From contig JAYWIR010000011.1 in assembly GCA_036172245.1 (NCBI GenBank), positions 4,588,001-4,644,913 of the forward strand: a stretch of 56,913 bases of DNA, given 5' to 3'. A program made the translations under genes and the position numbers. The number at the start of each line of letters is the position of its first letter. Position 1 is the first letter of the stretch. The DNA comes from Raillietiella orientalis. Taxonomy: Eukaryota. Shown one piece after another: positions 20,688 to 51,724 of the stretch. Under the pieces are notes generated by a model. The model made no database searches. It saw nothing but the letters and a program-made list of their open reading frames with translations, and was not told the DNA's origin.

Positions 20688-21030
20688 ATTTCAATCTCCG
20701 CCTGCTAACAGGTGAGCCGGAACCACAAGTGAACGCGATGAACGAGTTGTGCGCCGCTATGCGTGCGCGCAACTTGTTCGCGGGTGAGAAAGCAATGGTC
20801 CGCAGCATCGACCACGTCTTCCTGGACGCTGACCTGTGTTGACGCGTCGGCAAACGGGGGAGGGTTGTTGCGCCGTTGTCGGACCATTCCCGGCTAATTT
20901 TCGAGATGCGGCCTCGCGACAAAGGACCGCCATCCAGAAATCCGCGTCTGCCGGGGGACTGGACGCGACTCTCAGGTGCGGAGGAACACCTTCGCGAATT
21001 TTTGAGAGGCGTCACGCTCCAGAGTCTCTG
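20688..21030 (+). pseudogene. Copy F continued: second half of the APE domain
   Basis: FNLRLL..IDHVFL..SDH..GVTLQSL resumes exactly after the copy C TSD. Confidence 0.9.
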
Positions 21031-21242
21031 TTTAAACCCGGTACGCCGAAACGTTTATTATTTCAAATAAACTCATATAAACTGTGACTGGACCAGTAGT
21101 CCAGCCACGCAACGGAAAGATATAGCCTGCCGTGCTACCGGTGCGCAGACCGGCGCGGTCGACCTCGGCAGCAGAGGGGAGGGGGAACGAAACAAAAAGA
21201 AAACAAAAAATAAACAAAAATCAGGGAGGGAGCGGGAAGGGA

Positions 21243-24200
21243 TCACAGTCTGCTGGGAGGGTCCGTCATCCTCTGGAGGATGCCGGCAAGCTGTTTCTGC
21301 GTGTGTGGTTCCAGATGGGGCCATCGCGTCGCCATCCTGAGGAAACGGGCGGCATACACGTTGGCATCCCTGTCGCTGGATCCTCCCGTCGCTTTGCTCC
21401 ATGCCACGACGATCCAGCGTAGGCAGCACAGGGCTGCAAGCGAGGCCGCTGGAGGCAGGGCGTCACGGACGAAGAGGGGGCGCAAAGCGTTTCTGGGGTT
21501 GCCTCCGGGGATCCCCAGGGCTGCGGCAAAGCGTTCCCACACGGGACGGAGGGCAACACAATCCACTAACAGGTGGGGGAGGTATTCCCTCTCCCCGCAC
21601 CTGACACAATTAGGGTTGACACCCCCCCGCGTCCAGTGGTGTCGGCGGGCGTTGCAAGGAAGCCCCCAATGCAACACCATCAGTGCCGACTGTGGCCACT
21701 TCCTGGGGAGTGTGCGCGAGTCCGTGAGCACCGGAGGCCACTAGAGATGTTTTTCTGGAACATCCAGTAGCTCTCCCCAGCGCAAAAGTCCATTTGGGGT
21801 GGTCCTCGGGGTCGCAGCGTTGCTGAGCTTACCCGTTCTCCAATCCCCGATCTTCTTTGCCCTGCTGGCGATCTTCACAGTTACCTCCCATTGTGCCGCG
21901 ACGTCGCTGCCCAGATGTTCCCGTAGGGTAGGCAGTACCGCAGCAAGGGAGGTCCTTTGTGCCCACGCTCTCCTTCGGGGATTCTCGATGATTTCTCGGA
22001 GCGTGCGGCGGGCATGCGGCCCGAACAGAGCTATTCGCTCGTGTTGCGGGCTCTGCTCTTGAATCATCGCCCACGTGCGGACGGTTTCCTGCAACCAGGC
22101 AGGACCGCTCGCGGAGCGTACGAGGAACCGCGCCGAGTTGTTCTTCACGAGCTTGGCCGCCCTCAGAAGTTGAAGTCCGCAGTGGCAGATGAAGCTTCGG
22201 AGTGCAGAGTAATACGAAAGTCCCGCATTGCCGGCGGCCCGTTCGACGAGGAGACGTGCAGGGAGGCACCAAGGGGTGCACCAATTTGCTGCCATAAAGG
22301 CAACTACTCAAAACTGGAGCTGTAGCTCCAGCCGCTCCAACGTCAGAAGGCCCAGACCACCATCCCGACGAGGAGCGCACAAGTCCGAAAGACGGACTCG
22401 GGGCCTCCCTCTGCCCCAAAGGGCGATCCTCAGGAGGTCCTTCGTCCTCTTCTTTGACTCCGCTGAGAGGGGGCAAACAAAAAGCAAGGGCGAAGGAGGG
22501 GGGCCGCAAACGCGTTCCACGCCGCGGCCCGTTCCTGCAGGTACAACCTGCCGTCCTGGAACGGGCCGATCGCCGCCTGAACCTTCTGAAGGCAGCCGCA
22601 CCACGCTTCCGCAGGGGAGTAATCCCCCAACGGCACATCAAGGTACTTCAAGTACCTCACCGTAGGGATCCCCAAACGGACCCAGTCCTGCTGCCCTTCC
22701 CACGCCGCTCCGACTGGCATTACGGACGACTTCGCCCTGTTCACCGTCAGTCCTGTTCCACGACTCAGCAGGTCGAAGAATTCCTCGACCGCGGAGGCCG
22801 GGGTGGACATAGGCAGCAGCAGCAGAAGGTCGTCCGCGTACGCCGAAACCGCAGGCGTACCGGGACAATCGCACGGCAGATGCGCCAGAGTCTCCCTGTA
22901 CGCTCTCAGCACCAATTCGAAATAGGCGCTGAAAAGCAAGGGGCTGAGGCTGTCTCCCTGCCGTATGCTGCGTCGCACCGGTACGCCGTACACGGTGGAT
23001 CCACTAAAAAAAACATTAATAAGCGCGTCGCGCCAGCTGGAGCGCAGGTAGGCCAGCAAAGAGGCCGGAAAGCCCAAGCGTTCCAGAAGCTCCAGCAGGA
23101 GATTCTGTTCGACGCATTCGAATGCTTTATGCAAATCGACTGCGACCGCGAGGGCTCCTCTCCCCTCCCGACCATCCCGTCCCACACCAACGGACGCACC
23201 GGAATTCCGGATGTTTATTATGCTCCTTCCTTGTTGGAGTCCTAACCATGTGGAAGTGTGCAACAGGTTCGCCTCCATACTTCGCACGGGAACAGCATAT
23301 GTCTGTTCAGAGCTCATGAAGATTTTGGCGACCCGTCCCAGGCGCTCTGCTTAAACCTTAGCTAGCAACATGGCGTCCGCATTCACTATTGTGATGGGAC
23401 GCCAGCTGTTCATGCTCATAAGGTCTCCTCCCTTAGGGAGGAGCAGCACCTTTGCTGAACGAAACGAGGTGGGAACGTCACCTGTTTCGCGGATCAGCTA
23501 GGTGAGCTGATGTACCAGGGGAGTAAGCTCTGCTGCGAAAGTTTGATAAAACTCCGCGGGCAGGCCGTCCTCCCCTGGAGCCTTCCGCCTCTTGAGCTTT
23601 CCGATGGCCGAGAGGATCTCGTCCATCGTGAAAGGCTCGTCAAGGCTTCTTTTCTCCTCCTCCCTGATCGCTGGAGCACCTTCCGGAAGCAGAAGTCGTG
23701 AGACGTCTCGCTCCGGAGGCGCCCTGGCGTACAGGAAGGAGTAAAATTTCCTCACTATCCCGCGTTTCTGAGCGGGAACCGAGTGCTCCCGGCCCTGGTC
23801 GTCCAGCAAGCTGGCCGACCCGGATTGCCAGGCTTGCCTCTCGGCTCCCGTTCGATACTCTGCTAACCTGCGCATGTCGGGGGTTCTCGCGTAACGTCGG
23901 GCCTGAGGATAGCACCTTTCCTTACGCGGCCCCTCCCCAAATCCCACAGGTAGGCGATGCAGGGGGAACTGGTCGCAGAACTCCTGGACCGACCGCTTGA
24001 AGCGGTCCCAGTCCTGAAGTGTCTGCATCCTGAAGCTCCGCATAAACCCGCGGAGGTGCTCCGCCGCGTGGGGAAACTACAGCCAGTCCCCTGGCAGACG
24101 CCACGCTGACGAGGGGGGGTCCTTGTCGCGCGGATGCACTTCGAACATGATCCGACCATGGTCCGAAAGCTCGGATGGTACCTTGCCGCGCCTGCCCACC

Positions 24201-24823
24201 CGAAAGCATAGGTGCTGATCAAGGTACACGTGATCGATGCTGTTTTCCATGGCCGTGTCCCCGGCCAACAAGTTGCGCGTGTTCATTTCTGCGCACAACT
24301 CGTTGACGCAGTCGTTCAGTGTATCCGGCGCACCTCAAAGCAGGCGCAGGTTGAAATCACCTGCGATCAGGTGCGCTTTGCGAACTCCCTCATCGGTCAG
24401 CCAATCGCGTCTCAGGGCAAGGTAGAATTCCCTTCTTGCCTTCGCCCTCAACGCGTTGTTTCCTCTAGGAGCGTATAGGTTGGTGACGACCAGGTCGATA
24501 GAGTCCGACCAGCTGAGAGTCAGCTGACCGACGCGACCTGCGTCATCGAACCGAACGTCCTTTATTGCGGTCTCGATGGCTGGCCGAAGCAGGAAGGCGA
24601 CACCGCTTGATTTCGCGGTGCCGCAACGCCACAACAGCCGCCCACCCGAGATCCGTTCGATCTCCCGGGCTTGATCTGCGGAGATCACGTGGATCTCCTG
24701 CAGCAGCACCTGGTCGAAGGATGCCAGGGTGGCGGCCACGTCACGCCTCTTGCCGTCGTCGCTTAGCCCGTTCACGTTCCAACAGGCGCTCAGAAGACGA
24801 CGGCGAGAGGCGCTTCCCGGCAT
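21243..24823 (-). pseudogene. B1 ORF2 (APE-RT-zinc finger), disrupted
   Basis: ORFs 24335-24823, 23498-24043, 22430-23317, 21741-22295, 21243-21731. Confidence 0.9.
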
Positions 24824-26465
24824 TATGGCTGGGAAAGTTGCGTCGCGCCACCTGCCGCGGGGCAGGTGTAGGACAGGTCCATCGGTACGAGGACGGAGGC
24901 CTCTTCAGGCGCCTGGGTTACCTGTTTGGCCTCCATCCTCACCATCCTCTCCGTGTCCAAGCGTGGAATTCTCTCGGGCGACGGGTCCCGGGAGTTTCCC
25001 ACGCTCATGGCACCCTCGCTACCGGAAGCTATCTCTTCCACTTCGTCGGGGGAGACGATCTTCCGGGGCATTGTGGACTTTCGTCATGCCTTTTTGCGGG
25101 GTGCCGCGGAGATGGATGCTGTGTTTCCGGCCTTCACCTCGGGGTCGGAAGTGGCCGACTCCTGAGTGGAAGCCGGACGCCTGACGGCCTTCTTGCCAGC
25201 CTTGGGGGCAACAGGCTGCAACGAGGCAGCCAGCTCCTCCGCGGCGCGCTCGAAGGCGACGTCATCGAGCGTGGGCTCGATGACGGACGCCGCCGCCTCG
25301 CTCCCCTCCTTGTTCACTTTGTCAACGGAGGGTTGAGCAGGGGCAGCAGCGAGTTCTTTAGCGCCGCATTCGTCGATGGCGGGAATCCGCTTTACAACGA
25401 CGCAGCAGCTTTTAATTTTTTCGCGGCGCAGAGCGGTTTCGCTCCGTTTCGCCACGTTCTTTCCCTTCTTAGGGGAGTTTTTCTTGGGATCGACCTTCTG
25501 CCACCCTGGCTCTTGACCCTCGCCCTCGACCTTTTCGGCGTTTTTCGCCGGGGTCTCGGGGCTGGCCTTCGCCTTGGTGGCGGAAGTGACCTCCTTAGGA
25601 GCAGCACGAGCTGCCAGCTTTTTCCTCTTTTTAGCCGCGCGCTTTCTCGCGTTTTTCGCGGACACGACGCGGACTGTGTTTTGGGGGCACACCAGACGGG
25701 TGTGAACGCTTGTTTGCATTGCTGGCACTGCACGCTCGGACACTTCATTTTAAGGTGACCAAAGCTGCTGCAGCAGCCGCAAAACTTGGGTTTTCCCACG
25801 TACCACACGTCCACGGATTCACCGTTCACGGTGAGTTTGTGGGGAACCTCACATCCCTCGCGAACCGTCACTCGCGCTGCACCCAGGCCGCCAAGCAACC
25901 CGTCGTAATCGACAAAAGGAGTAGGCTTTCCCCACAGCGCGTGGACAGTTGCGAATTTTTCCAATTCGTTCCGGACGGCCTCCTTCGTCATCGGAAACGT
26001 GATACCGGTCAGGTGAATGATGACCGACCGGTCTTTAGTAATTGGGAGAAGCCTTTGGCTGCCCATAATTACGGGGGTTCGCAGAAGTCTCTGCGCAAGA
26101 GTTGCCTCCTTGCAGATTACATCTGCGAATTGTCCCCCGCTTCTGACGGACATAGCCAGAAGCTCCTCTTTCTGTACGCCGAGAACGCGCATCTCCTGTG
26201 AGAAGGCGCGCGCGTTCTCGGGAGATTATAGACCGCCTACCTGATATAGAAGGGGTGGGTTATACCCCTCCTCCAGGTAAGCGCGTATTTCCTCCATAGC
26301 CGCTGGCGTAGGTGCCGCAACCACGGCGTTCCAAGCCCTGGGTAGGGCCGGGGGCGCATCCGTGCTGGCGGGAGCCTCCACTGATGCGGGAGCTTCAACC
26401 TCCATCTGCTCCGGGGGCAATGAGGTCATCGCCCCCGGATCCTCACCGGTGGTGGTATCAGGCAT
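24823..26465 (-). pseudogene. B1 ORF1, disrupted
   Basis: ORFs 26226-26465, 25392-26192 (CGCCSSFGHLKMKC), 25084-25743, 24823-25071. Confidence 0.9.
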
Positions 26466-26547
26466 TTCTGCCTAATCTTCCACCCACACCACGCACAAGC
26501 ACCAACGGAAATGGAACTCAGGAGCAACGAAAAGACAGGTCCGCTCG

Positions 26548-26564
26548 ACGCTCCGGAATCTCCA
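26548..26564. repeat. 17-bp target-site duplication of B2 (partner at 32102-32118)
   Basis: acgctccggaatctcca identical at both ends. Confidence 0.95.
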
Positions 26565-26777
26565 TTGAAACCCGGGTGCGCCGGGACGTTTATTCTAACG
26601 AATAAACTTATACAATCTGTGACTGGACCAGTAGTCCAGCCACGCCCTGGAAAGATATAGCCTGCCGGGCTACCGGTTTGCAGACCGGCGCGGTCGACCT
26701 CGGCAGCAGAGGGGAGGGGGAACGAAACAAAAAGAAAACAAAAAATAAACAAAAATCAGGGAGGGAGCGGGAAGGGA

Positions 26778-29700
26778 TCACAGTCTGCTGGGAGGATCCG
26801 TCATCCTCTGGAGGATGCCGACAAGCTGTTTCTGCTTGTGTGGTTCCAGATGGGGCCATCGCGTCGCCATCCTGAGAAAACGGGCAGCATACACGTTGGC
26901 ATCCCTGTCGCTGGACCCTTCCGTCGCTTTGCTCCATGCCACGACGATCCCGCGTAGGCAGCACAGGGCTGCAAACGAGGCTGCTGGAGGCAGGGCGTCA
27001 CGGACGAAGAGGGGGCGCAAAGCGTCTCTAAGGTTGCCTCCGGGGATCCCCAGGGCTGCGGCAAAGCGTTCCCACAAGGGACGGAGGGCAACACAATCCA
27101 CTAACAGGTGAAGGAGGTATTCCCTCTCCCCGCACCTGACACAATTAGGGTTGACACCTCCCCGCGTCCAGTGGTGTCGGCGGGCGTTGCAAGGAAGCCC
27201 CCAATGCAACACCATCAGTGCCGACTGTTGCCACTTCATGGGGAGGGTGCGCGAGTCCATGAGCACCGGAGGCCACTCGAGATGTTCCTCTGGAACATCG
27301 AGTAGCTCTCCCCAGCGCAAAAGTCCATTTGGGGTGGTCCTCGGGGTCGCAGCGTTGGTGAGCTGACCCGTTCTCCAATCCCCGATCTTCTTTGCCCTGC
27401 TGGCGATCTTCACAGTTACCTCCCATTGTGCCGCGAAGTCGCTGCCCAGATGTTCCCGTAGGGTAGGCAGTACCGCAGCAAGGGAAGTTCTTTGTGCCCG
27501 CGCTCTCCTTCGGGGATTCTCGATGATTTCTCGGAGCGTGCAGCGGGCATGCGGCCCGAACAGAGCTATTCGCTCGTGCTGCGGGCTCTGCTCCTGAATC
27601 ATCGCCCACGTGCGGACGGTTTCCTGCAACCAGGCAGGACCGTTCGCGGGGCGTACGAGGATCCGCGCCGAGTTGTTCTTCACGAGCTTGGCCGCCCTCC
27701 GAAGTTGAAGTCCGCAGTGGCAGATGGGGCTTCGGAGTGCAAAGTAGGACGAGAGTCCCGCATTGCCGGTGGCCCGCTCGACGAGGAGACGTGCAGGGAG
27801 GCACCAAGGGGTGCACCAATTTCCTGCCATAAAGGCAACAACCCGGAACTGGAGCTGTAGCTCCAGCCGCTCCAACGTCAGGAGGCCCAGACCACCATCC
27901 CGACGAGGAGCGCACAAGTCCGAAAGACGGACTCAAGGCCTCTCTCTGCCTCAAAGGGCGATCCTCAGGAGGTCCTTCGTCCTCTTCTTTGACTCCGCTG
28001 AGGGGGGGCAAACAAAAAGCAAGGGGCGAAGGAGGGGGGCCGCCAACGCGTTCCACGCCGCGGCCCGTTCCTGCAGGTACAACCTGCCGTCCTGAAACGG
28101 GCCGATCGCCGCCTGAGCCTTCTGAAGGCAGCCGGACCACGCTTCCGCAGGGGAGTCCTCCCCCAACGGCACACCAAGGTACTTGAAGTACCTCACCGTG
28201 GGGATCCCCAAACGGACCCAGTCCTGCTGCCCTGCCCACGCCGCTCCGACTGGCATTACGGACGACTTCGCCCTGTTCACCGTCAGTCCTGTTCCACGAC
28301 TCAGCAGGTCGAAGAATTCCTCGACCGCCGAGGCCGTGGTGGACATAGGCAGCAGCAGCAGAAGATCGTCCGCGTACGCCGAAACCGCAGGCGTACCGGG
28401 GCAATCGCACGGCAGGTGCGCAAGAGTCTCCCTATACGCTCTCAGCACCAATTCGAAAAAGGCGCGAAAGAGCAGGGGGCTCAGGCTGTCTCCCTGCCGT
28501 ATGCCGCGTCGCACCGGTACTCCGTGCACGGTTTGCCCGCTGAAAAGAACATTAATGAGCGCGTCGCGCCAGCTGGAGCGCAGGTAGGCCAACAAAGAGC
28601 CCGGGAAGCCCAAGCGTTCCAGAAGCTCCAGGAGGAGATTCTGGTCGACGCTGTCGAATGCTTTACGCAAGTCGACAGCGACCGCAAGGGCTCCCTTCCC
28701 CACCCAACCGTTCCGTCTCCCGCCAACGGACGCACCGGAATTCCGGCTGCTCAATAAGCCCCTTCCTTGTTGGAGCTCTAACCATGTGGGAGCGTGGAAC
28801 AGGTTCGCCTCCATGGTCCGCCCGGGAACAGCATAAGTCTGTTCCGAGCTGATGAAGATGTTGGCGACCCGTCCCAGGCGCTCTGCCCACATCTTGGCTA
28901 TCAACTTGGCGTCCGCATTCACTATTGTGATGGGACGCCAGTTGTTCATGCTCCTTAGGTCTCCTCCCTTCGGGAGGAGATGCACCTTTACTGAACGAAA
29001 CGAGGTGGGAACGTCACCTGTTTCACGGATCAGCAAGGTGAGCTGATGTATCAGGGGAGTAAGCTCAGCCGCGAAAGTTTGGTAAAACTCCGCGGGCAGG
29101 CCGTCCTCCCCTGGAGCCTTCCGCCTCTTGAGCTTTCCGATGGACGATAGGATCTCGTCCATCGTGAAAGGCTCGTCGAGGCTTCTTTTCTCCTCCTCCC
29201 CGATCGCTGAAGCACCTTCCGGAAGCAGAAGTCGTGAGACGTCTCGCTCCGGAGGCGCCCTGGCGTACAGGGAGGAGTAAAATTTTCTTACTATCCCGCG
29301 TTTCTGAGCGGGAACCGAGTGCTCCCGGCCCTGGTCGTCCAGCAAGCTGGCCGATCCGGATTGCCAGGCTTGCCTCTCGGCTGCCGCTCGGTACTCTGCT
29401 AACCTGCGCATGTCGGGGGTTCTCGCGTAACGTCGGGCCTGAAGATAGCACCTTTCGTTACGCGGCCCCTCCCCAAAACCCGCAGGTAGGCGATGCAGGG
29501 GGAACTGGTCGCAGAACTCCTGGACCGACCGCTTGAAGCGGTCCCAGTCCTGAAGTGTCTGCATCCTGAAGCTCCGAATAAACGCGCGGAGGTGCTCCGC
29601 CGCGTCGGGAAACTTCAGCCAGTCCCCTGGCAGACGCCATGCTGACGAGGGGGGGCCCTTGTCGCGCGGACGCACTTCGAACATGATCCGACCATGGTCC

Positions 29701-30358
29701 GACAGCTCGGATGGTACCTTTCCGGGCCTGCCCACCCGAGAGCATAGGTGCTGATCAAGGTACACGTAATCGATGCTGCTTTCCATGGCCGTGTCCCCGG
29801 CCAACAAGTTGCGCGTGTTCATTTCTGCGCACAACTCGTTGACGCGGTCGTTCAATGTATCCGGCGCACCTGAAAGCAGGCGCAGGTTGAAATCACCTGC
29901 GATCAGGAGCGCTTTGCGAACTCGTGCATCGGTCAGCCAATCGCGTCTCAGGGCAAGGTAGAATTCCCTTTTGCCTTCGCCTTCAACGCGTTATTTCCGC
30001 TAGGAGCGTATAGGTTGGTGACGACCAGGTCGATAGAGTCGGACCAGCTGAGAGTCAGCTGACTGACGCGACCTGCGTCATCGAACCGAACGTCCTTTAT
30101 TGCGGTGTCGATGGCTGGCCGAAGCAGGAAGGCGACACCGCTTGATTTCGCGTTGCCGCAACGCCACAACAGCCGCCCACCCGAGATCCGTTCGATCTCC
30201 CGGGCTTGATCTGCGGAGATCACGTGGATCTCCTGCAGCAGCACCAGGTCGAAGGATGCCAGGGTGGCGGCCACGTCACGCCTCTTGCCGTCGTCGCTTA
30301 GCCCGTTCACTTTCCAACAGGCGATCAGAAGACGACGTCGAGAGGTGATTCCCGGCAT
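26778..30358 (-). pseudogene. B2 ORF2, nearly intact
   Basis: ORFs 29948-30358, 27951-29855 (634 aa, RT core with YADD), 26778-27917. Confidence 0.9.
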
Positions 30359-32019
30359 TATGGCTGCGAAAGTGGCGTCGCGGCACCTGCCGCGGGGCAG
30401 GTGTACGAAAGGTCCATCGGTACGAGGACCATCGGAACGAGGACGGAGGCCTCTTCAGGCGCCTGGGGTACCTGTTCGGCCTCCATCCTCTCCATCCCCT
30501 CCGTGTCCGAGCGGGGAATTCTCTCGGGCGACGGGTCCCGGGAGTTTCCCACGCTCATGGCACCCTCGCTACCGGAAGCCATCTCTTCCCCTTCGTCGGG
30601 GGAGACGATCTTCCGGGGCATTGTGGACTTTCGTCCTGCCTTTTTGCGGGGTGCCGCGGAGATTGATGCTGTGTTTCCGGCCTTCACCTCGGGGTCGGAA
30701 GTGGCCGACTCCTGAGGGGAAGCCGGACGCCTGACGGCCTTCTTGCCAGCCTTGGGGGCAACCGGCTGCAACGAGGCAGCCAGATCCTCCGCGGCGCGCT
30801 CGAAGGCGACGTTATCGAGCGTGGGCTCGATGACGGACGCCGCCGCCTCGCTCCCCTCCTTGTTGACTTTGTCAACGGAGGGTTGAGCAGGGGCAGCAGC
30901 GAGTTCTTTAGCCCGCGCACCATTCGTCGATGGCGGGAATCCGCTCTACAACGACGCAGCAGCTTTCAATTTTATCGCGGCGCAGAGCGGTTTCGCTCCG
31001 TTTCGCCACGTTCTTTTCCTTCTTATGGGAGTTTTTCTTGGGGTCGACCTTCTGCCACCCTGGCTCTTACCCTCGCCTTCGACTTTTTCGGAGTTTTTCG
31101 CCGAAGTCTCGGGGCTGGCCTTCGCCTTGGTGGCGGAGGTGACCTCCTTAGCAGCAGCACGAGCTGCCAGCTTCTTTCTCTTTTTTGCCGCGCGCTTTCT
31201 CGCGTGTTTCGCGGACACGACGCGGACTGTGTTTTGGGGGCACACCAGACGGGTGTGCCCCGCTTGTTTGCATTGCTCGCACTGCACGGTCGGACACCTC
31301 ATTTTAAAGTGACCAAAGCTGCTGCAGCAGCCGCAAAACTTGGGTTTCCCCACGTACCACACGTCAACGGATTCACCGTTGACGGTGAGTTTGTGGGGAA
31401 ACTCACATCCCTCGCCAACCGTCACTCGCGCTGCACCCAGGCCGCCAAGCACACCGTCGTGATCGACAAAAGGAGTAGGCTTGCCCCACAGCGCGTGGAC
31501 AGTTGCAAACTTTTCCAATTCGTTCCAGACGGCCTCCTTCGCCATCCGGAACGTGATACCTGTCAGGTGAATGATCACCAACCGGTCTTCAGTAATGGGG
31601 AGAAGTTTCCGGCTGCTTATAATTACGGGGGTTCGCAGAAGTCTCTGCGCAAGAGTTGCCTCCTTGCAGATAACTTCCACAAATTGACCCCCGCTTCTGA
31701 CGGACATAGCCAGAAGCTCCTCTTTCTGTACGCCGAGAACGCGCATCGCCTGTGAGAAGGCGCGCGCGTTCTCGGAAGAATATAGACCGCCTACCTTATA
31801 TAGAAGGGGTGAGTTATACCCCTCCTCCAGGTAAGCGCGCATTTCCGCCATAGCTGCTGGCGTAGGTGCCGCAGCCACGGCGTTCCAAGCCCTGGGTAGG
31901 GCCGGGGGCGCATCCTTGCTGGCGGGAGCCTCCACTGATGCGGGAGCTCCCACCTCCATCTGCTCCGGGGGCAATGAGGTCATCGCCCCCGGATCCTCAC
32001 CGGTGGTGGTATCAGGCAT
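30358..32019 (-). pseudogene. B2 ORF1, frameshifted
   Basis: ORFs 30946-32019 (two knuckles) and 30358-30771. Confidence 0.9.
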
Positions 32020-32101
32020 TTCTGCCTAATCCTTTACCCACACCACGCACAAGCACCAACGGAAATGGAACTCAGGAGCAACGAAAAGACACGTCCGCTC
32101 G

Positions 32102-35100: not shown

Positions 35101-35119
35101 GGGCGTACCTGGGTGACAA
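32102..35119 (+). mobile_element. Family F 3' half: linker, RT, C-terminus, 3'UTR and terminus
   Basis: Resumes at TLRNLQDWD; DLHKAFD, YADD, CVRC..HLIVDC; stop at 34908-34910; terminal hairpin at 35089-35119. Confidence 0.9.
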
Positions 35120-37319: not shown

Positions 37320-37400
37320 ATCCACGAAGTGCAACGGGAGACCGAGGCGTTCCAGGAGCTCCAGCAAAAGATCCTGATTTACGCAGTCGAACGCCTTGCG
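37320..37400 (-). pseudogene. About 80-bp RT remnant (KAFDCVNQDLLLELLERLGLPLHF)
   Basis: Direct translation of the minus strand. Confidence 0.85.
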
Positions 37401-39172: not shown

Positions 39173-39841
39173 AGCCGAAGTACGCCGCAATGTGAGACGC
39201 TACTACTTCTTGCTGTACGCGGAATCCCCGACGGAGGATATTCTCTCTGAGATACTCCTGTCTCAGGATGCTCGTGTTGTCGGCGAGGAGGAACGCGAAC
39301 GTCTCAACGAGCCCTTCACGGCGGACGAATTTTCGTCCGCCATCACTGGGCTGAAGAGACGAAGGGAGCCAGGCAAGGATGAGCTCCCTGCAGAGTTTTA
39401 TCAGTGCTTTGCAGTGGAGCTCATTCCCTTGATGCTAAGACTCGCGACGCTTATGAGTGAATCCGGGAATGTCCCGGATTCCTTCCGCTCAGCGAAGGTG
39501 CGTCTCCTGCCGAAAGGAGGAGACTTGCGCCAACTTAACAACTGACGTCCGATCACCTTGGTGAACTCGGACGTCAAGTTGTTTTCGAAGCTGTGGGTCG
39601 CGCGGTTAGGAAGTATCGCGGAATCTGTGGTGAGCCCGGAACAAACCTACGCGGTTCCGGGGCGATCCATGGAGGCGAACATCGTTTTCGCGCGTACATG
39701 GATGCAGCTGCAGGAAGTCGTTGCGCAGCAAAGCCAGGCTGCTGCGAAAGTCACAGCCGCAGGCAAGAATAACAGGCGCCGACGCAAGGAGGGAACGCCA
39801 GGTGCCTTGGCGGTCGCGGTCGATCTTCACAAGGCGTTCGA
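39169..39841 (+). pseudogene. Family C ORF2 fragment ending at KAFD
   Basis: Near-identical to about 17827-18499. Confidence 0.9.
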
Positions 39842-41331: not shown

Positions 41332-41746
41332 TAGCAGGTTTCTGCTGCCTACGCGCGATCGTCACCGCCTGGAGCAAGGCTAACCAGGACGACGCGACCA
41401 GGGTAGCATCCAGCCAACCTCCCAGTTCCTGAGGAGAGCGTCGAGATGGCCCCACCTGGATCCAGCAATACAGAAGGAGCTTGCCGACATCCTGCAAAGG
41501 ATGCAACGGCCCCAACAGCTACAGTGATCCCTTCCCGCACCCTCCCACCTTTTCTTTTCTTTTTTTGTTTTGTTTTTTGTTTTTCTTCCTTCCCCCTGCT
41601 GCCGTGGTAGACCGTACCGGTCCGCGAACCGGTGACCCGGCAGGATCTGTGTTTCTTCGTGCGTGGCTGTAGCAATGGTCCAGCCACTGCACGTCTTTGC
41701 AAATGTTTATTGAACAATAAACGCCCCGGCGAAATCCGGGTGAAAA
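41329..41746 (+). mobile_element. Copy D2 (family D), 3' 0.4 kb, head-to-head with D1
   Basis: CCLRAIVTAW..ILQRMQRPQQL, 3'UTR, terminus at 41716-41746. Confidence 0.9.
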
Positions 41747-42385
41747 TCGAACGCCTTGTGGAGATCGACTGCGAGAGCTAGGGTCCCCTTCCCCGCCCGG
41801 GTGTCCCTTCCCTGCCCGGCTGGCGGCCCCAATGTGGGGTTGCCGATTTTCTTCCTTCCTTTCTTTTCCCATCTCTGCAGGTGCATCCATGTGCTTGCGA
41901 AGAAGAGGTTGGCATCCATACTTCGCCCGGGAACAGCATAAGTCTGCTCCGGGCTAATTACGGATTCTGCCACCTGCCCCAGACGCGAAGCCCATAGCCC
42001 TGCTAATAACTTGGCGTCCGTATTCACGATCGTGATCGGACGCCAGTTCTCTGAGGTCAGATCCCTGAGGTCTCCCCCTTTCGGAAGGAGCCTCACTCTG
42101 GCTGACCGACAAGAGGCGGGAACATCGCCTTCGTCTCGGATCAGCCTTATCAACTGGAGCAGCAGGGGTTCCAGATCTTAAGCCAAGCTCTGAAAGAACT
42201 CTGCAGGCAAGCCGTCTTCCCCTGGAGCTTTACGCCTCTTGAGCCTTTTGATACAGGCGAGAATTTCGCCGGTGGTAAAAGGCTCGTCGAGGCTTAACTT
42301 CTCCTCCTCCTTTATTGCCGAAGCACCAACCGGAAGCAAGCGCCGAGAGGCGTCTTGATGCGGGGGCGCCCTGGCGTAAAGGGAG
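41747..42385 (-). pseudogene. Copy H: family F RT fragment from SLYA to KAFD
   Basis: Highly similar to about 32395-33025. Confidence 0.9.
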
Positions 42386-42474
42386 CGTGCGGTCGTGTTT
42401 TTTCTGTGCTCCTGCCGTGAGAGTTTTCGAAGCCTTTTTTAGTGTGTTAGTGCGTGGTGCATCGCCGGTGTCCC

Positions 42475-44471
42475 ATGGCAGGAATGCCTGAGTTCACCGC
42501 GATGGAAGTTGGCGGGGGAGAGGATGGTTCCTCTCCCCAACCCACAGAGGTGGGGGCAACCGCTTCCACGGAGAAGAGGGCAACCGCCCCCTTGGAAAAG
42601 GGGGCAACCGCCCCTCCGGAAACGAGTGCTGCCGCCTCCTTGAAAAAGGGAGCAACCCCTCTCGTGCAAAAGGCCGCAACCGCCCCCTTGGAAAAGGGGG
42701 CAACCGCCCCTCCGGAAACGAGTGCTGCCGCCTCCTTGGAAAAGGGAGCAACCCCTCTCGTGCAAAAGGCCGCAACCGCCCCCTTGAAAAAGGGGGCAAC
42801 CGCGTCCTTGGATCCGTCTGCTCCATCCACGAAGACCTGGAGCTCCGTGGCTGCAGCGCCATCTCCTGCAGCCTTAGCAGAACTGCGGGCCTACCTGGAA
42901 CAAGGATACAAGCCGTCCTTGATTTACAAGGTAGGAAACCTGTTCGTTGGAAACAACGCCCGCAATTTCGAGAGGGAATTGCAGCTGTTAGAAGTAAAAG
43001 AGGAGGAACTGGAAGGCCTTTCAGTGCTCAGTGGGGGCCAGCGGGTGGAGCTTACTTTCAGAGATGCAAGCCTGGCTCAACGCCTGCTGAATACCCCTCT
43101 CATGCTGGAAGGCAGAAAGGTCTTCCCTGTAACCGAGGATCGCTCTGTGGTAGCGCATCTTACGGGAGTATTCCTCCGCATGTCAAAAGCCGGCGTGAAG
43201 AAGGAATTAAGCAAATACGGTACGGTACACGCGGTATGGACCAAGCCGAACATCTTCCAAAGTTACGGAAGACTGTTCAGTGGCATGGCCGCAGCGCGTG
43301 TGACCGTCAAGGAAAACAATGGGCTGCCCCACAAACTAGACGTCGGCAACGAGGTCGTCGACGTCTGGTACGTGGATAAGCCCAAGTACTGTGGACACTG
43401 TGATGCAACAGGGCACGTCAAAATACGATGCCCCACATCCAGTGTTTCCACTGCGGCGAAAAGGGCCACCTGCGGAAGGTGTGTCCTAAACGCGAAACCC
43501 CGGCTCCCCCTGCTTTGAAAAAAGCCAAAGGGAAACGCGCGGGGCCACCGGACAAGCCCAAGGAGGCACCCGAGAGGCGGAACCCACAGCCAGAACCCGA
43601 ACCCGTGCAGCAAGCGCCGGTCGAGGATACTCTTAACGACACTGGAGAGAGCGAGGGCTGGCATAAGGCGAAGCCTAAATGTAAAAAGAGCAAGAAGACC
43701 GAAGATCCGACAGCGGAACCCGCGACATCTCCTTTAAATAGGAGACAACGCCGCGCGTTGCTCCGCGAATGTTCGGTCGCTTTGGAGCGTGTGGAGGTCC
43801 CCGAGACCGCCACAGGGGGAGATATCCCTCGCCTCGTTGACGACGAAGTCGCGACCTCGGAAGGCGAACCCTCTGTGCAAACAGAGGGGGAGCCGAGCGA
43901 CGCACTCGCCGCAATCGACGACGACGCCTTCCAACAGGCGGCAGAAGAGCTCGCGGCCGAACTCGCGGAGCGTGAGAACGGCGCGCGAAAGGCCTTCTGA
44001 AGGCCGGCCGCAGGCAAGGCACCTCCGACAGGTGACCACGACCCGGATGACGGAAGTGCGTCCTCCTCCGCGGAGGCTCCTCCGAAGAAGACTGGACGGA
44101 AGTCCAAGAATCCCAAGAGGCGCATCCCGACAAAGAAGGAGGGGGACGCACCGGCATCCGAGGGGGAAGCCGGCAGCGTGGGAACGGAGGGAGGGATTTT
44201 CCCACCCTCCGCTACCGAGCAACCGGAGACCCCCATGGAGGAGGGGGATAAAGTGAGTGATTGCCGCCCCCTCCCAACGGTGGAACCTGTCCAAGAGATA
44301 GCCATGGAGGAGGCGGAGCAGACAGCTGACAACCGCTCCCCCCTGCCGTCCAACGCAGCCGACGAATCGGCCCCCATGGAGGAGGGAGAACCGGTGCGCG
44401 GTGATCCCGTTCCTCCATCCGTCCCGCCCGACCAGGTGGCGGGCGCCCCATTGCCACTTTCCCAGGAGTAA
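42475..44471 (+). pseudogene. ORF1 of copy G, disrupted
   Basis: CGHCDATGHVKIRC, CFHCGEKGHLRKVC; ORFs 42454-43518, 43428-44000, 44178-44471. Confidence 0.85.
42556..42811 (+). repeat. Higher-order coding repeat: 96-bp unit made of 24-bp subunits
   Basis: gcaaccgccccctt at 42580, 42676, 42772; ATAPLEKG ATAPPETS AAASLKKG ATPLVQKA. Confidence 0.9.
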
Positions 44472-45270
44472 CACCTGGGCTCGCCTGTCGCCGTCGATTA
44501 CGCGTGGCCTGCTGGAACGTGAACGGGCTGCGCGACGACAGCAACAGACGGGACACGGCCGCCACCCTGCGTGACTTCGATCTGGCACTCCTGCAGGAGA
44601 TCCACGTGATCACCGCGGAGAACGCCCAGGAGATCGAAAGGATCGCAGGGGGACGGCTGATGTGGCAATGCGGCACCCGATACACCTGCGGCGTCGCGTT
44701 TTTTATGAAGCCGGCAGTCGACGCAGCCGTGAAGGGCGTGCGCTTCGACGAAGCCGGTCGTGTCGGCCAGCTGATTCTCAGGTGGTCCGACGCTATTGAC
44801 CTCGTCGTAACCAACGTGTACGCCCCGAGCGGTCCTGCCAGGTACCAGGAACGTGCGGCGTTTCTGGAAACCCTGAAGCGCGACTGGCTGGTGGAAGCGA
44901 ACGTGCGCAGGGCTTACCTGATTGCTGGCGATTTCAACCTGAGCCTGCTCTCAGATGATGTTCACGCACAGGAGCGGACGGCCAACGAGTTGTGCGTTGC
45001 CATGCGCACGCGCAACTTGTTGGGGGATCTCCCGGGAATGGCCAAAGGCTTCGACCATTTTTTCCTGGATGCTGACCTGTGTCCACGGGTCGGCAATCGG
45101 GGGAGAGTTGCGTCGACGCTGTCGGACCATTCCCGGCTAATTATCGAGGTATGCGCGCGCGACAAGGGTCCCCTTTCCAGGGCCTGGCGGCTGCCTGGAG
45201 ACTGGACGCGACTCTCAGGTGCGAAAGAACACCGCCAATTCCTGAGAGGCGTCACCCTCCGGAATCTCGC
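44471..45270 (+). pseudogene. ORF2 AP endonuclease domain of G, truncated by B3
   Basis: CWNVNG, LQEIH, NVYAP, AGDFN, SDH in one open frame. Confidence 0.9.
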
Positions 45271-45485
45271 TTGAAACCCGGGTGCGCCGGGACGTTTATT
45301 CTCAAGAATAAACCTATACAATCTGTGACTGGACCAGTAGTCCAGCCACGCCCTGGAAAGATATAGCCTGCCGGGCTACCGGTGCGCAGACCGGCGCAGT
45401 CGACCTCGGCAGCAGAGGGGAGGGGGAACGAAACAAAAAGAAAACAAAAAAAATAAACAAAAACCGAAGAGGGAGCGGGAAGGGA

Positions 45486-48400
45486 TCACAGTTTGCTGGG
45501 AGGGTCCGTCATCCTCTGGAGGATGCCGGCAAGCTGTTGTTGCGTGTGTGGTTCCAGATGGGGCCATCGCGTCGCCATCCTTAGGAAACGGGCGGCATGC
45601 ACGTTGGCATCCCTGTCACTGGATCCTCCCGTCGCTTTGCTCCATGCCACGACGATCCCGCGTAGGCAGCACAGGGCTGCAAGCGAGGCCGCTGGAGGCA
45701 GGGCGTCACAGACGAAGAAGGGGCGCAAAGAGTCTCTAAGGTTGCCTCCGGGGATCCCCAGGGCTGCGGCAAAGCGTTCCCACAAGGGACGGGGGGCAAC
45801 ACAATCCACTAACAGGTGGGGGAGGTATTCCCTCTCCCCGCACCTGACATAATTAGGGTTGACACCACCCCGCGTCCAGTGGTGTCGGCGGGCGTTGCAA
45901 GGAAGCCCCCAATGCAACACCAGCAGTGCCGACTGTTGCCATTTCATGGGGAGGGTGCGCGAGTCCATGAGCACCGGGGGCCACTCCAGATGTTCCTCCG
46001 GAACATCCAGTAGCTCGCCCCAGCGCAAGAGTCCATTTGGGGTGGTCCTCGGGGTCGCAGCGTTGGTGAGCTGACCCGTTCTCCAATCCCCGATCTTCTT
46101 TGCCATGCTGGCGATCTTCACAGTAACCTCCCATTGTGCCGCGACGTTGCTGCCCAGATGTTCCCGTAGGGTAGGCAGTACCGCAGCAAGGGAGGTTCTT
46201 TGAGCCCACGCTCTCCTTCGGGGATCCTCGAAGATTTCTCGGAGCGTGCGGTGGGCGTGAGGCCGGAACAGAGCTATTCGCTCGTGTTACGGGCTCTGCT
46301 CCTGAATCATTGCCCACGTGCGCACGGTTTCCTGCAGCCAGGCAGGACCGTTCGCAAGGCGTACGAGGATCCGCGCCGAGTTGTTCTTCACCAGCTTGGC
46401 CGCCCTCCGAAGTTGAAGTCCGCAGTGGCAGATGGGGCTTCGGAGTGCAAAGTAGGACGAGAGTCCCGCATTGCTGGTGGCCCGCTCGACGAGGAGACGT
46501 GCAGGGAGGCACCAAGGGGTGCACCAATTTTCTGCCATAAAGGCGACAACTCGGAACTGGAGCTGTAGCTCCAGCCGCTCCAACGTCAGGAGGCCCAGAC
46601 CACCATCCCGACGAGGAGCGCACAAGTCCGAAAGACGGAGTCGGGGCCTCCCTCTGCCCCAAAGGGCGATCCTCAGGAAGTCCTTCGTCCTCTTCTTTGA
46701 CTCCGCTGAGGGGGGGCAAACAAAAAGCAAGGGGCGAAGGAGGGGGGCCGCAAACGCGTTCCACGCCGCGGCCCGTTCATGCAGGAAGAACCTGCCGTCC
46801 TGGAAATGGTCGATCGCCGCCTGAGCCTTCTGAAGGCAGCCGGACCACGCTTCCGCAGGGGAGTAATCTCCCAACGGCACTCGAAGGTACTTGAAGTACC
46901 TCACCGTGAAGATCCCCAAACGGACCCAGTCCTGCTGTCCTGCCCACGCCGCTCCGACTGGCATTACGGACGACTTCGCCCTGTTCACCGTCAGTCCTGT
47001 TCCCCGACTCAGCAGGTCGAAGAACTCCTCGAGGAGTTCTTCGATTGCCGCAGCCGGGGTGGACATAGGCAGCAGCAGCAGAAGGTCGTCCGCGTACGCC
47101 GAAACCGCAGGCGTACCGGGACAATCGCACGGCAGGTGCGCCAGAGTCTCCCTGTACGCTCTCAGCACCAATTCGAAATAGGCGCTGAAGAGCAAGGGGC
47201 TGAGGCTGTCTCCTTGCCGTATGCCGCATCGCACCGGTACGCCGTATACGGTGGATCAACTAAAAAAGACAATAATAAGCGCGTCGCGCCAGCTGGAGCG
47301 CAGGTAGGCCAGCAAAGAGGCCGAGAAGCCGAAGCGTTCCAGAAGCTCCAAAAGGAGATTCTGGTCTACGCAATCGAATGCTTTATGCAAATCGACTGCG
47401 ACCGCGAGGGCTCATCTCCCCTCCCGACCATCCCGTCCCCCACCGACGGACGCACCGGAATTCCGGTTGCTTATTATGCTCCTTCCTTGTTGGAGCTCTA
47501 ACCATGTGGAAGCGTGGAACAGGTTCTCCTCCATACTTCGCCCGGGAACAGCATATGTCTGTTCCGAGCTGATGAAGATGTTGGCGACCCGTCCCACGCT
47601 CTCTGCCCACAGCTTGGCTAAGAACTTGGCGTCCGCATTCACTATTGTGATGGGACGCCAGTTGTTCATGCTCCTAAGGTCTCCTCCCTTAGGGAGGAGC
47701 CGCACCTTTGCTGAACGAAACGAGGCGGGAACGTCACCTGTCTCGCGTATCAGCAAGGTGAGTTGCTGTACCAGGGGAGTAAGCTCTGCCGCGAAAGTTT
47801 GATAAAACTCCGCAGGCAGGCCGTCCTCCCCTGGAGCCTTTCGCCTCTTGAGCTTTCCGATGGCCGAGATGATCTCGCCCATCGTGAAAGGCTCGTCGAG
47901 GTTCCTTTTCTCCTCCTCCCCGATCGCTGGAGCACCTTCCGGAAGCAGGAGTCGTGAGACGACCTGCTCCGGAGGCGCCCTGGCGTACAGGGAGGAGAAA
48001 AATTTCCTCACTATCCCGCGTTTCTGAGCGGGAACCGAGTGCTCCCGGCCCTGGTCGTCCAGCAAGCTAGCCGACCTGGATTGCCAGGCTTGCCTCTCGG
48101 CTCCCGCTCGGTATTCCGCTAACCTGCGCATGTCGGAAGTTCTTGCGTAACGTCGGGCCTGACGATAGCATCTTTCGTTACGCGGCCACTCCCCAAATCC
48201 CGCAGGTAGGCGATGCAGAGGGAACTGGTCGCAGAACTCCTGGACCGACCGCTTGAAGCGGTCCCAGTCCTGAAGTGTCTGCATTTTGAAGCTCCGAATA
48301 AACGCGCGGAGGTGTTCCGCCGCGTCGGGAAACTTCAGCCAGTCCCCTGGCAGACGCCACGCTGACGAGGGGGGACCCTTGTCGCGCGGACGCATTTGAA

Positions 48401-49078
48401 CATGATCCGACCATGGTCCGACAGCTCGGATGGTACCTTGCCGCGCCTGCCCACCCGAAAGCATAGGTGCTGATCAAGGTACACGTGATCGATGCTGCTT
48501 TCCATGGCCGTGTCCCCGGCTAACAAGTTGCGCGTGTTCATTTCTGCGCACACCTCGTTGACGCGGTCGTTCAGTGTATCCGGCGCACCTGAAAGCAGGC
48601 GCAGATTGAAATCACCTGCGATCAGGTGCGCTTTGCGAACTCCTGGTTCGGTCAGCCAATCGCGTCTCAGGTCAAGGTAGAACTACCTTCTTGCCTTCGC
48701 CCTCAACGCGGAGTTTCCGCTAGGAGCGTATAGGTTGGTGACGACCAGGTCGATAGAGTCGGACCAGCTGAGAGTCAGCTGACCGACGCGACCTGCGTCA
48801 TCGAACCGAACGTCCTTTATTGCGGTCTCGATGGCTGGCCGAAGCAGGAAGGCGACACCGCTTAATTTCGCGGTGCCGGAACGCCACAACAGCCGCCCAC
48901 CCGAGATCCGTTCGATCTCCCGGGCTTCATCTGCGGAGATCACGTGGATCTCCTGCAGCAGCACCAGGTCGAAGGATGCCAGGGCGGCGGCCACGTCACG
49001 CCTCTTGCCGTCATCGCTTAGCCCGTTCACGTTCCAACAGGCGATCAGCAGACGACGGCGAGAGGCGATTCCCGGCAT
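45486..49078 (-). pseudogene. B3 ORF2, disrupted
   Basis: ORFs 48683-49078, 47412-48464, 46287-47234, 45486-46121. Confidence 0.9.
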
Positions 49079-50718
49079 TATGGCTGGGAAAGTGGCGTCG
49101 CGGCACCTGCCGCGGGGCAGGTGTAGGAAAGGTCCATCGGTACGAGGACCATCGGAACGAGGACGGAGGCCTCTTCAGGCACCTGGGGTACCTGTTCGGC
49201 CTCCATCCTCACCATCCCCTCCGTGTCCGAGCGTGGAATTCTCTCGGGCGACAGGTCCCGGGAGTTTCCCAAGCTCATGGCAACCTCGCTACCGGAAGCC
49301 ATCTCTTCCCCTTCGTCGTGGGAGACGATCTTCCGGGGCATTGTGAACTTTCGTCCTGCCTTTTTGCGGGATGCCGCGGAGATGGATGCTGTGTTTCCGG
49401 CCTTCACCTCGGGGTGGGAAGTGGCCGACTCCTGAGGGGAAACCGGACGCCTGACGGCCTTCTTGCCAGCCTTGGGGGCAACCGGCTGCAGCGAGGCAGC
49501 GAGCTTCTCCGCGGCGCGCTCGAAGGCGACGTCATCGAGCGTGGGCTCGATGACGGACGCCGCCGCCTCGCTCCCCTCCTTGTTGACTTTGTCAACGGAG
49601 GGTTGATCAGGGGCAGCAGCGAGTTCTTTAGCGCCGCATTCGTCGACGGCGGGAATCTGCTCTACAACGACGCAGCAGCTTTTGGTTTTTTCGCGGCGCG
49701 GAGCGGTTTCGCTCTGTTTCGCCACGTTCTTTCCCTTCCTAGGGGAGTTTTTCTTGGGGTCGACCTTCTGCCACCCTGGCTTTTGACCCTCGCCCTTGAC
49801 CTTTTCGGCGTTTTTCGCCGGGGTCTCGGGGCTGGCCTTCGCCTTGGTGGCGGACGTCACCTCCTTAGCAGCAGCACGAGCTGCCAGCTTCTTTCTTTTT
49901 TTAGCCGCGCACTTTCTCGCGTTTTTCGCGGACACGACGCGGACTGTGTTTTGGGGGCACACCAGACGGGTGTGCCCCGCTTGTTTGCATTGCTGGCACT
50001 GCACGCTCGGACACCTCATTTTAAGGTGACCAAAGCTGCTGCAGCAGCCGCAGAACTTGGGTTTCCCCACGTACCACACGTCAACGGATTCACCGTTGAC
50101 GGTGAGTTTGTGGGGAAACTCACACCCTTCGCGTACCGTCACTCGCGCTGCACCCCGGCCGCCAAACAACCCATCGTAGTCAGCGAACAGGGTTGGCTTC
50201 CCCCACAGCGCGTGGACGGTCTCAAATTTGTTTATTTCGTTCCGGACGGCCTCCTTGGTCATCCGAAACGTAATCCCGGTCAGTTGAATGATCACCGACC
50301 TGTCTTCCGTTATTGGAAGAAGCCTCCGGCTTCCCATCATTACGGGGGTTCGCAGAAGCCTCTGCGCAAGAGTTGCCTCCTTGCAGATAACTTCCACAAA
50401 TTGACCCCCGCTTCTGACGGACATAGCCAGAAGCTCCTCTTTTTGTACGCCGAGAACGCGCATCGCCTGCAAGAGGGCGCGCGCGTTCTCGGGAGAATAT
50501 AGACCGCCTACCTTATATAGAAGGGGTGGGTTTTACCCCTCCTCCAGGTAAGCGCGCATTTTCGCCATAGCCGCTGGTGTAGGTGCCGCAGCCACGGCGT
50601 TCCAAGCCCTGGGTAGGGCCGGGAGCGCATCAGTGGGGGCGGGAGCCCCCACTTCCATCTCCTCCGGGGGCAATGGGGTCATCGCCCCCGGAATCTCACC
50701 GGTAGTGGAATCAGGCAT
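49078..50718 (-). pseudogene. B3 ORF1, one disruption near 50533
   Basis: ORFs 50533-50718 and 49078-50472 (464 aa, two knuckles). Confidence 0.9.
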
Positions 50719-50800
50719 TGCTGCCTAATCCTCCACCCACACCACACAAAACACCACCGGAAATCGAAATTCAGGAGCAGCAAAAAGACACGTCCGCTCG

Positions 50801-51724
50801 ACACTCCGCAATCTCGCTGATTGGGACCTTTTTAAGGCCTCGGTCCGCGAGTTTTGCGAGGAGTTCCCCTTGCACCGCATGCCCCCCGGATTTTGGGATG
50901 GGTTCCGTAACGAACGGGCGTATTTGTATGCCCGCCGTTACGCAAGGACCCCCAACATCCGTCGCCTGGCGGAGTATCGAGCAGGGGCCGAAAGTCAAGC
51001 CTGGCAATCCGGGTCGGACAGCTTGCTGGACGACCAGGGCCGGGAGCACTCGGCTCCGGCTAGAATACGGCACCTCGTGCGGTGTTATTTTTCCTCCCTT
51101 TACGTCAGGGCGCCCCCGGGCCAAGATGACTCTCGGCGCTTGCTTCCGGAAGGTGCCCCGGCAATAGGGGAGGAGGAGAAGGAAAGCCTCGACGAGCCTT
51201 TTACCACCGGCGAAATTCTCGCCGGTATCAAAAGGCTCAAGAGGCGGAAAGCTCCAGAGGAAGACGGCTTGCCCGCGGAGTTCTATTAGAGCTTCGCGGA
51301 AGAGCTGGCACCCCTGCTGCTTCAGATGACAAGGCTCATCCGAGACGAAGGCGATGTTCCCGCCTCGTTTCGTTCAGCCAGGGTGAGGCTCCTTCCGAAA
51401 GGAGGAGACCTCAGGAAACTCAGCAACTGGCGTCCGATCACAATTGTGAATACGGAGGCCTTGCTGATCGCCGGACTGTGGGCTTCGCGTCTGGAGCAGG
51501 TGGCCAATTCCGTAATTAGCCCGGAGCAGTTTTACGCTGTTCCCGGGCGAAGTATGGAGGCCTACCTCTTCTTCGCGAGCACATGGTTTTATGTGCAGAG
51601 TAGTGAAGAAAAGGAAGAGGGAATGATTTGCAGCCCCGCTTTGGGGGCGTCAGCCGGGCAGGGACAGGATTTCCAGGTGGGAAGAAAGCCCTAGCGATCG
51701 CAGTCGATCTACAGAAACGTTCGA
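50801..51724 (+). pseudogene. Host ORF2 resumed after B3, up to the KAFD-equivalent site
   Basis: TLRNLADWD..LDEPFTTGEI..WRPITIVN..AVDLQK. Confidence 0.85.

Follow-up and report, generated by a model that had tools for sequence, protein, structure and literature searches.

Three B elements and their two host LINEs

The window analysed here, a 56,913-nucleotide (57-kb) stretch of a Raillietiella orientalis contig (JAYWIR010000011.1), consists almost entirely of related retrotransposons without long terminal repeats (non-LTR), which self-BLAST and tblastn reveal to be nested in one another, and its G+C content is ~59% throughout. Our subject is one family of these long interspersed nuclear elements (LINEs), termed B, and the site that it occupies in two other LINEs, the hosts F1 and F2. 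All three B copies are full length and lie antisense at the same nucleotide position of the second open reading frame (ORF2) of a host, between copies of a 17-bp sequence that belongs to the host. The analysis covers this single window, in which B is represented by three copies at two loci and a parallel case, the C4 family, by four. Elements were called by self-BLAST and by tblastn with the B2 reading frames, domains were assigned with Pfam and the B copies were compared in a three-way alignment.

Host F1 spans 12347-35119 on the plus strand and is interrupted by B1, by B2 and by an element E (14782-20687). Its 5′ part (12347..14781, with the 5′ end, ORF1 and the N-terminal part of the endonuclease) is split by E from the rest. 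The C-terminal part of the endonuclease (…LSDHSRLIFE…HLREFLRGV) follows at 20688..21013 and runs up to the target, and the remainder, comprising the linker, the reverse transcriptase (RT), the zf-RVT domain and the 3′ end (…CCTGGGTGACAA), lies at 32119..35119. Host F2 spans 42385-54180, also on the plus strand. Its 5′ end, ORF1 and endonuclease occupy 42385..45253 up to the target; linker, RT, C-terminal domain and a C4-type 3′ end occupy 50818..54180. Two insertions break up F2, namely B3 and, at 51725-~52015, a short piece of C4 on the minus strand. A direct repeat with a period of ~96 bp (42552-42707 versus 42648-42803, 91.7% identical by self-BLAST) lies in the 5′ region of this host. At the DNA level F1 and F2 have no more than 72-82% identity, and their 3′ ends differ; since F2 carries a C4-type 3′ end, the two hosts are members of separate families with the B target in common.

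B1 (21031..26547, 5517 bp), B2 (26565..32101, 5537 bp) and B3 (45271..50800, 5530 bp) have their reading frames on the minus strand, and so lie antisense to hosts that are read from the plus strand. As a consequence, what appears as the left end of a B copy in the plus-strand view is its 3′ end. B1 and B2 are arranged head to tail and separated by exactly one target copy. The B copies are 93.3-94.4% identical in pairs, B1 and B2 sharing 94.4% with each other and 93.3% with B3. In B2, ORF1 (30946-32025, minus strand) encodes two CX2CX4HX4C knuckles, which were read from the translation, and had no Pfam match. The N-terminal part of the endonuclease lies at 29948-30454 (minus strand; Exo_endo_phos, 27.9 bits), and its C-terminal part and the RT at 27951-29990 (minus strand; 17.8 bits for Exo_endo_phos in this frame-shifted copy, 81.5 bits for RVT_1); the endonuclease of an intact sister copy, G, scores 53.6 bits with Exo_endo_phos. 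The zf-RVT C-terminal domain (26778-27932, minus strand) matches PF13966 with an E-value of 0.002 and 19.2 bits, under the curated cut-off of 27.5 bits, and its C..C..H..C columns are invariant in five family members. The order of endonuclease and then RT is also found by tblastn. Judged by its domains, B is probably an autonomous endonuclease-type (APE) non-LTR retrotransposon of the L1 superclade.

All three copies share their termini, beginning with CGAGCGGAC… and ending with …CCCGGGTTTCAA; in the orientation of B itself the element starts CGAGCGGAC(G/C)TGTCTTTT and finishes AATAAACGTCCCGGCGCACCCGGGTTTCAA, with no poly(A) tail, the 3′ end being decayed in B1. The 5′ ends of B, F1, F2 and E have the motif CGAG..CGGACGTG.TTTTC in common. 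At the other extremity, all 12 LINE 3′ ends compared in the window carry AATAAA(C/T)G and then a stem of 5 bp (CCC.GG / CC.GGG) whose loop is specific to the family, and finish G/T..AA (…GGGT..AA) directly against the flank; a run of A is present in 0 of 12. Examples, each comprising the last ~65 nt, are found at 26565-26629 (minus), 35055-35119 (plus) and 9357-9421 (minus). No compensatory changes in the stem were seen among these 12 ends. The shared stem-loop may be the RT recognition hairpin of a ‘stringent’ LINE group.

The site of insertion is the same in both hosts. The sequence, on the coding strand of F1- and F2-type LINEs, is AC(G/C)CTCCGGAATCTC(CA/GC), and the split falls ~45 codons past the L-S-D-H (SDH) motif of the endonuclease, in the linker that follows this domain, between the same codons: G V T L R N L / Q D W D in F1 and G V T L R N L / A D W D in F2. 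Next to the 3′ end of B1 lies the left target copy (21014..21030, plus strand; ACGCTCCAGAGTCTCTG, F1 codons T-L-Q-S-L), which matches the middle copy at 13 of 17 positions, all four mismatches being transitions. The middle copy (26548..26564, plus strand; ACGCTCCGGAATCTCCA) separates the 5′ side of B1 from the 3′ side of B2 and is identical, 17/17, to the right copy (32102..32118, plus strand; ACGCTCCGGAATCTCCA), which encodes T-L-R-N-L-Q and at which F1 resumes. In F2 the copy by the 3′ end of B3 (45254..45270, plus strand; ACCCTCCGGAATCTCGC, codons T-L-R-N-L-A) matches that by the 5′ end (50801..50817, plus strand; ACACTCCGCAATCTCGC) at 15 of 17 positions. All three insertions are thus flanked by 17-bp copies, and joining the F1 flanks with one target copy restores the open F1 frame. 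Both copies beside B3 end in the F2-specific …CTCGC, whereas F1 has …CTCCA. As the duplications of B3 are spelled like F2, the repeats are host sequence that was duplicated at insertion and are not carried by B.

How restricted is this target? Allowing up to three mismatches, the 17-mer occurs four times in the window against 0.17 expected, and four occurrences were reached in none of 100 shuffles. The homologous 17-mers in the other elements (E, G, K, H and the three B copies) differ from the F1 target at 7-11 of 17 positions, and none of these seven sites is occupied, versus both of the F-type sites (2/2). The site in B itself, with the codons S-F-R-M-Q-T-L-Q-D-W-D, has 7-8 differences of 17 and is empty in 3/3 copies. 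One near-cognate, ACGCTGCGGAATCTCCT at 34140..34156 (plus strand), lies in the C-terminal domain of F1 (codons R-C-T-L-R-N-L-L-E), differs at 2 of 17 positions and is likewise unoccupied; its emptiness indicates that recognition involves bases outside the 17-mer or the mismatched positions.

The original prediction for this DNA had placed B at the TLRNL codons downstream of the host endonuclease, with 17-bp duplications, a head-to-tail B1-B2 pair that shares one target copy and B3 in the same register of a diverged host; these points hold, as does the divergence of the site in B itself and in the other families. Two of its statements need amendment. Its layout of B within F is right in location and register, and is to be corrected in that B is a minus-strand element, antisense in its hosts. 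It had also treated ‘F-type hosts’ as the sole carriers of the target, which agrees with the differing homologous sites of the other families, except that F1 and F2 represent two families and not one.

A model for the insertion of B and its alternatives

Based on these observations, we propose that B is a sequence-specific LINE of the endonuclease type that enters ORF2 of sister LINEs at one defined sequence by target-primed reverse transcription, a mechanism that we consider likely. The B machinery would first nick the sense strand of the host after …ATCTC(CA/GC), just ahead of the conserved D-W-D codons. The 3′-OH at this nick would then prime cDNA synthesis on the 3′ end of B RNA (…GGGUUUCAA), so that B would come to lie antisense to its host, and a second cut in the other strand, 17 bp away, would generate the 17-bp duplication. 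As each insertion would regenerate two copies of the target, a second B could enter beside the first, which would give rise to the B1-B2 pair with its shared copy. That the endonuclease sets the specificity is what we infer; for the nicks, their sequence in time and their placement follow the standard model of target-primed reverse transcription.

Which part of the machinery reads the site? B could be site specific and yet owe this to a DNA-binding part of ORF2 or ORF1 other than the endonuclease, such as the zinc-finger region at the C terminus, to a host factor or to a structural feature, a possibility that we regard as unlikely. In their endonuclease domains the families retain 52-62% identity to G, and the vacant near-cognate in F1 implies that bases beyond the 17-mer or other features matter. 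On the other side, the endonuclease domain of Tx1L/Tx2L reportedly cuts its target specifically. The 3′ end of B RNA displays no complementarity to the target or the primer when junction sequences are compared by eye. For R1Bm, a published study describes an endonuclease that itself cuts specifically, on both strands of its 28S target (PMC1919474).

A different objection concerns the register itself, which might have been inherited. In this scenario, which appears highly improbable to us, a single ancient B insertion in one F element was carried to the second locus by segmental duplication and was converted into the B1-B2 pair by tandem duplication. The setting is favourable for such events, as the window is a dense nest of repeats with inverted and direct duplications, and B1 and B2 resemble each other slightly more than they resemble B3. 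The flanks tell against it: the left flanks of F1 and F2 agree at just 77.1% of positions across 275 bp and the right flanks at 82.1% across 910 bp, a divergence of 18-23% versus 6.7% for B1/B2 against B3, and their differences start at the first bases outside the 17-mer. Moreover, the duplications of B3 bear bases specific to F2, and a tandem duplication would have to break inside a 17-bp repeat. The lesions of the B copies point in the same direction. When reading frames were followed along the alignment columns and stops and frameshifts were counted, B1 had 9, B2 had 4 and B3 had 6, and not one of these 19 is common to any two copies, which implies that each copy descends from an intact source. 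Among private coding changes, 31 of 95 are synonymous in B1, 49 of 112 in B2 and 71 of 137 in B3, where the figure includes the stem to B1 and B2. Under neutrality, the same codons would yield a synonymous fraction of 0.27-0.32, also when CpG sites are taken to be tenfold hypermutable. Binomial tests give no significant excess for B1, p 0.0003-0.011 for B2 and p <1e-5 for B3, so that part of the divergence of B2 and B3 arose before insertion, in a lineage under protein-coding selection. On these comparisons we favour separate retrotransposition events over duplication of DNA as the origin of the B copies.

It is scarcely conceivable that B merely prefers LINE clusters or their chromatin and that the shared register is a coincidence or a weak local bias. 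LINE-in-LINE nesting does pervade the window, and the poplar LINE Celine targets a region without a fixed sequence and has a unique duplication for each copy (PMC11288735), but three B insertions with identical nucleotide register and orientation, four C4 insertions likewise at another single site and the excess of target 17-mers over expectation are at odds with such a preference. Nor do we give appreciable weight to a transfer of B from one F paralogue to another through ectopic gene conversion or homologous recombination, for which F1 and F2 are homologous around the site, as the differences right at the junction leave no donor-like conversion tract, duplication of the 17-mer on either side is the mark of staggered nicking and not of conversion, and the private branches show a synonymous excess.

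The proposed insertion of B by its own site-specific machinery also has points against it, and these are best considered together. The sample is small, with three copies at two loci in a single window, and B insertions may exist at other sites. The empty look-alike in F1, two mismatches away from the target, means that the data do not define the true recognition sequence, and the endonuclease is a putative reader of the site, next to other parts of ORF2 and to ORF1. For B1 versus B2 alone, the case against a tandem duplication of DNA is indirect: their synonymous fractions do not differ significantly (Fisher p 0.12) and their private non-synonymous counts are equal (64 and 63), an equality that the inherited register would also accommodate. 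The four mismatches of the left target copy exceed uniform decay at the rate of B (Poisson p ~0.014). Lastly, the 3′ untranslated region of B1 (within 21014-21250) has accumulated 14 private changes over 213 columns, compared with 2 in B2 and 7 in B3.

The same figures bear on the order of arrival. The identity of the middle and right target copies, the divergence of the left copy and the larger number of lesions in B1 suggest that B2 arrived second, into the right-hand target copy. The equal non-synonymous counts, the excess of mismatches in the left copy and the excess of changes in the 3′ untranslated region of B1 make this order only tentative.

One public sequencing run holds related sequence and contains 0.13 of the sampled words. 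It was compared through its contigs only, at a similarity of at least 85%; 348 pieces were placed, 9 of them at least 99% alike. The run contains both B-like and F-like sequence, and two of its short contigs, with depths of 2 and 4, join the left to the right flank without B, one of them with a shorter side of 27 letters. These contigs resemble empty F-like sites, which we take as a weak indication of several insertions. A further joint, from 44634 to 45276 (side of 25), was examined as a possible B 3′ end at another location and discarded, because its letters end TTATC before ACCCGGG, the terminus of the type found in E and at x2683. The six of 190 loose ends and 15 of 17 joints that are listed for the run are not informative on absence, on copy number or on other B flanks, which is a further constraint on the proposed insertion mechanism.

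Other LINE families of the window

The behaviour of B has a parallel in the C4 family, whose 3′ end reads …CCGGCGAAATCCGGGTGAAAA. Four such ends are present in the window, at 51725 (minus), 39842 (minus), 54180 (plus) and 41746 (plus), and 4/4 lie at one site, antisense in the codons A-V-D-L-H-K-A-F/D of RT motif A, in four different hosts. The C4 3′ ends abut TCGAACG..T.GT…; the element ends are 89-96% alike, the host flanks only 57-77%. E (18477-18499) and F1 (33004-33026) each hold an exact C4 target without an insertion, so that occupancy of the site is not saturating. C4 does enter its own family, as shown by the x51730 fragment in F2. This 5′-truncated fragment of ~300 bp is flanked by a host duplication of ~65 bp (51655-51724 / 52016-52085), versus 17 bp for B. 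Taken together with B, C4 makes precise LINE-in-LINE targeting look like a trait of the clade.

Extending this argument, the window might harbour at least five or six closely related LINE families, each with an exact landing site of its own in ORF2 of its sisters, a reading that we hold to be possible but somewhat less than probable. The set of sites would comprise the TLRNL linker for B, motif A (AVDLHKAF/D) for C4, P-P-G-F-G for F1, G-D-F-N, in sense orientation, for E and the zinc-finger region for an element ‘a’. The junctions of F1 in G, of ‘a’ and of E occur once each.

The individual insertions are as follows. F1 lies antisense in the minus-strand element G (35121-37268 and 9623-12338), at the P-P-G-F-G codons, ~26 codons downstream of the B-type site; its flanks (12330-12347 / 35120-35137) resemble a decayed duplication of ~17-18 bp, with 11 of 18 positions matching by eye. 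E (5.9 kb, plus strand, 14782-20687) is inserted at the G-D-F-N codons of the F1 endonuclease, with an 8-bp duplication, ATTTCAAT, at 14774-14781 / 20688-20695. It is the sole sense-oriented nesting seen in the window, and on account of E the rule that insertions are always antisense was abandoned. Element ‘a’, seen once, lies antisense in the H-W-G…C-N region of another copy.

Elsewhere in the window, the segment 5674-7918 on the minus strand holds a distant element with endonuclease and RT, ~27% identical to B in protein, which represents a different LINE lineage in the same nest. Within 2619-2760, what appears to be the 5′ end of a plus-strand element, with a downstream ORF1 at 3076-3807, lies ~38 nt beyond the 3′ end of another plus-strand element (…CCCGGGTGATAA at 2683), and this pair may be a second head-to-tail stack. 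A short RT fragment on the minus strand (37330-37412), which starts K-A-F-D-C-V-N-Q…, adjoins the slightly truncated 5′ end of a plus-strand element (37413-39086); by eye, this is a 5′ junction at the motif-A site used by C4. The region 37300-42400 yields no simple nesting hierarchy: E is matched by the left part of H at 71% identity and by the fragment 39169-39841 at 94%.

Known elements, relatives and implications

Site-specific LINEs of the endonuclease type are known for ribosomal DNA (rDNA), telomeres, small-RNA genes, microsatellites and one DNA transposon, and Tx1L of Xenopus sits inside the DNA transposon Tx1D. Like Tx1L and Tx2L, B is an endonuclease-type LINE with a fixed target inside another transposable element, so that composite elements result. 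It differs from them in that its target is the coding sequence of a sister LINE, entered antisense. The best named relatives of B are only 25-30% identical. With R1, B shares the endonuclease type, one defined sequence in a multicopy target and precise junctions; the target is ORF2 of another retrotransposon in one case and 28S rDNA in the other, the duplications differ in length, as the clades probably do too. Target-specific non-LTR elements fall mostly into three groups, which include the Tx1 and R1 clades, according to one account (PMC4640811). What characterizes the Tx1/R1 type, the same target and precise junctions in independent copies, was found in 3/3 B copies and at 2/2 host loci of the window. 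The poly(A) or simple-repeat 3′ tail of L1 proper is lacking in B and in all 12 LINE 3′ ends.

Nested LINE clusters have been described in other organisms. Zepp and ZeppL, green-algal elements of the L1 type, form LINE nests like the present window, which is LINE-only with ~59% G+C. Zepp-type clusters are GC-rich relative to the genome, as stated in a description of them (PMC3446292). Zepp arrays are described as consisting for the most part of 5′-truncated 3′ ends from a single family. All B copies, in contrast, are full length and lack a poly(A) tail, and B uses one exact 17-bp site in other families and does not insert into its own. In Cryptococcus, Cnl1 builds nested arrays with many copies within pre-existing copies, and the available passages of that source give no evidence of a fixed site in the coding sequence of a sister family (PMC9942834). 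In contrast to B, Cnl1 nests in itself at subtelomeres and most of its copies are 5′-truncated. Celine, the centromeric LINE of poplar, resembles B in landing mostly in other transposable elements and in having a restricted chromosomal niche, and differs in its unique target duplication per copy and loose nick motif, where B has the same 17-mer each time (PMC11288735). By analogy, B appears to act like an element of the Tx1/R1 type, and what would be new is a target in ORF2 of a sister LINE, antisense entry and a site that is missing from its own sequence. In the literature compared, which takes in preprints on a brown alga and on a centromere atlas, LINE families with exact sites in ORF2 of sister LINEs are not described; details of the original target of Zepp lie outside this comparison.

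Sequence collections offer few relatives. Protein searches returned 28 and 107 matches, with no named close relative; the nearest named proteins are LINEs of fish, plants and oomycetes, at 25-30% identity. Among 1.84 billion representatives, the best 150 matches are headed by a single protein with 74% identity and a single fragment of 132 residues with 65%, and the next reach at most 37%. The protein P0001 (73-74% identical) begins past the target region and is therefore uninformative on the site. No green-algal protein is present among the 28 and 107 relatives or the best 150 representatives, and a protein atlas contributed generic RT clusters only. A metagenome scan with the B 3′-end pattern gave 0 matches; one with the C-terminal domain alignment gave 154 pattern matches, from which 2 loci passed tblastn (37% over 41 residues), and these were not used. 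A scan of prokaryote genomes with the five-family 3′-end pattern produced 1 match, which lies in an ordinary bacterial coding sequence without BLAST similarity and was dismissed as chance. The clade of B is thus nearly missing from public protein collections.

What are the implications of a LINE that enters its sisters at one site? If the proposed mechanism is true, B is a retrotransposon that parasitizes another retrotransposon through a fixed coding target, in antisense orientation, and that is itself free of this target. It would also provide a simple growth mechanism for LINE-only islands, such as those at some algal or fungal centromeres or chromosome ends. Should the sister families indeed have different exact sites, they would supply related endonucleases of differing specificity from which the reading of DNA and its retargeting could be learned. 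Under the more tentative reading of at least five to six families with separate landing sites, the window would represent a self-feeding, hyperparasitic LINE-in-LINE ecosystem that builds islands made of transposons only, and its members would constitute a natural series of endonucleases retargeted over a short evolutionary distance.

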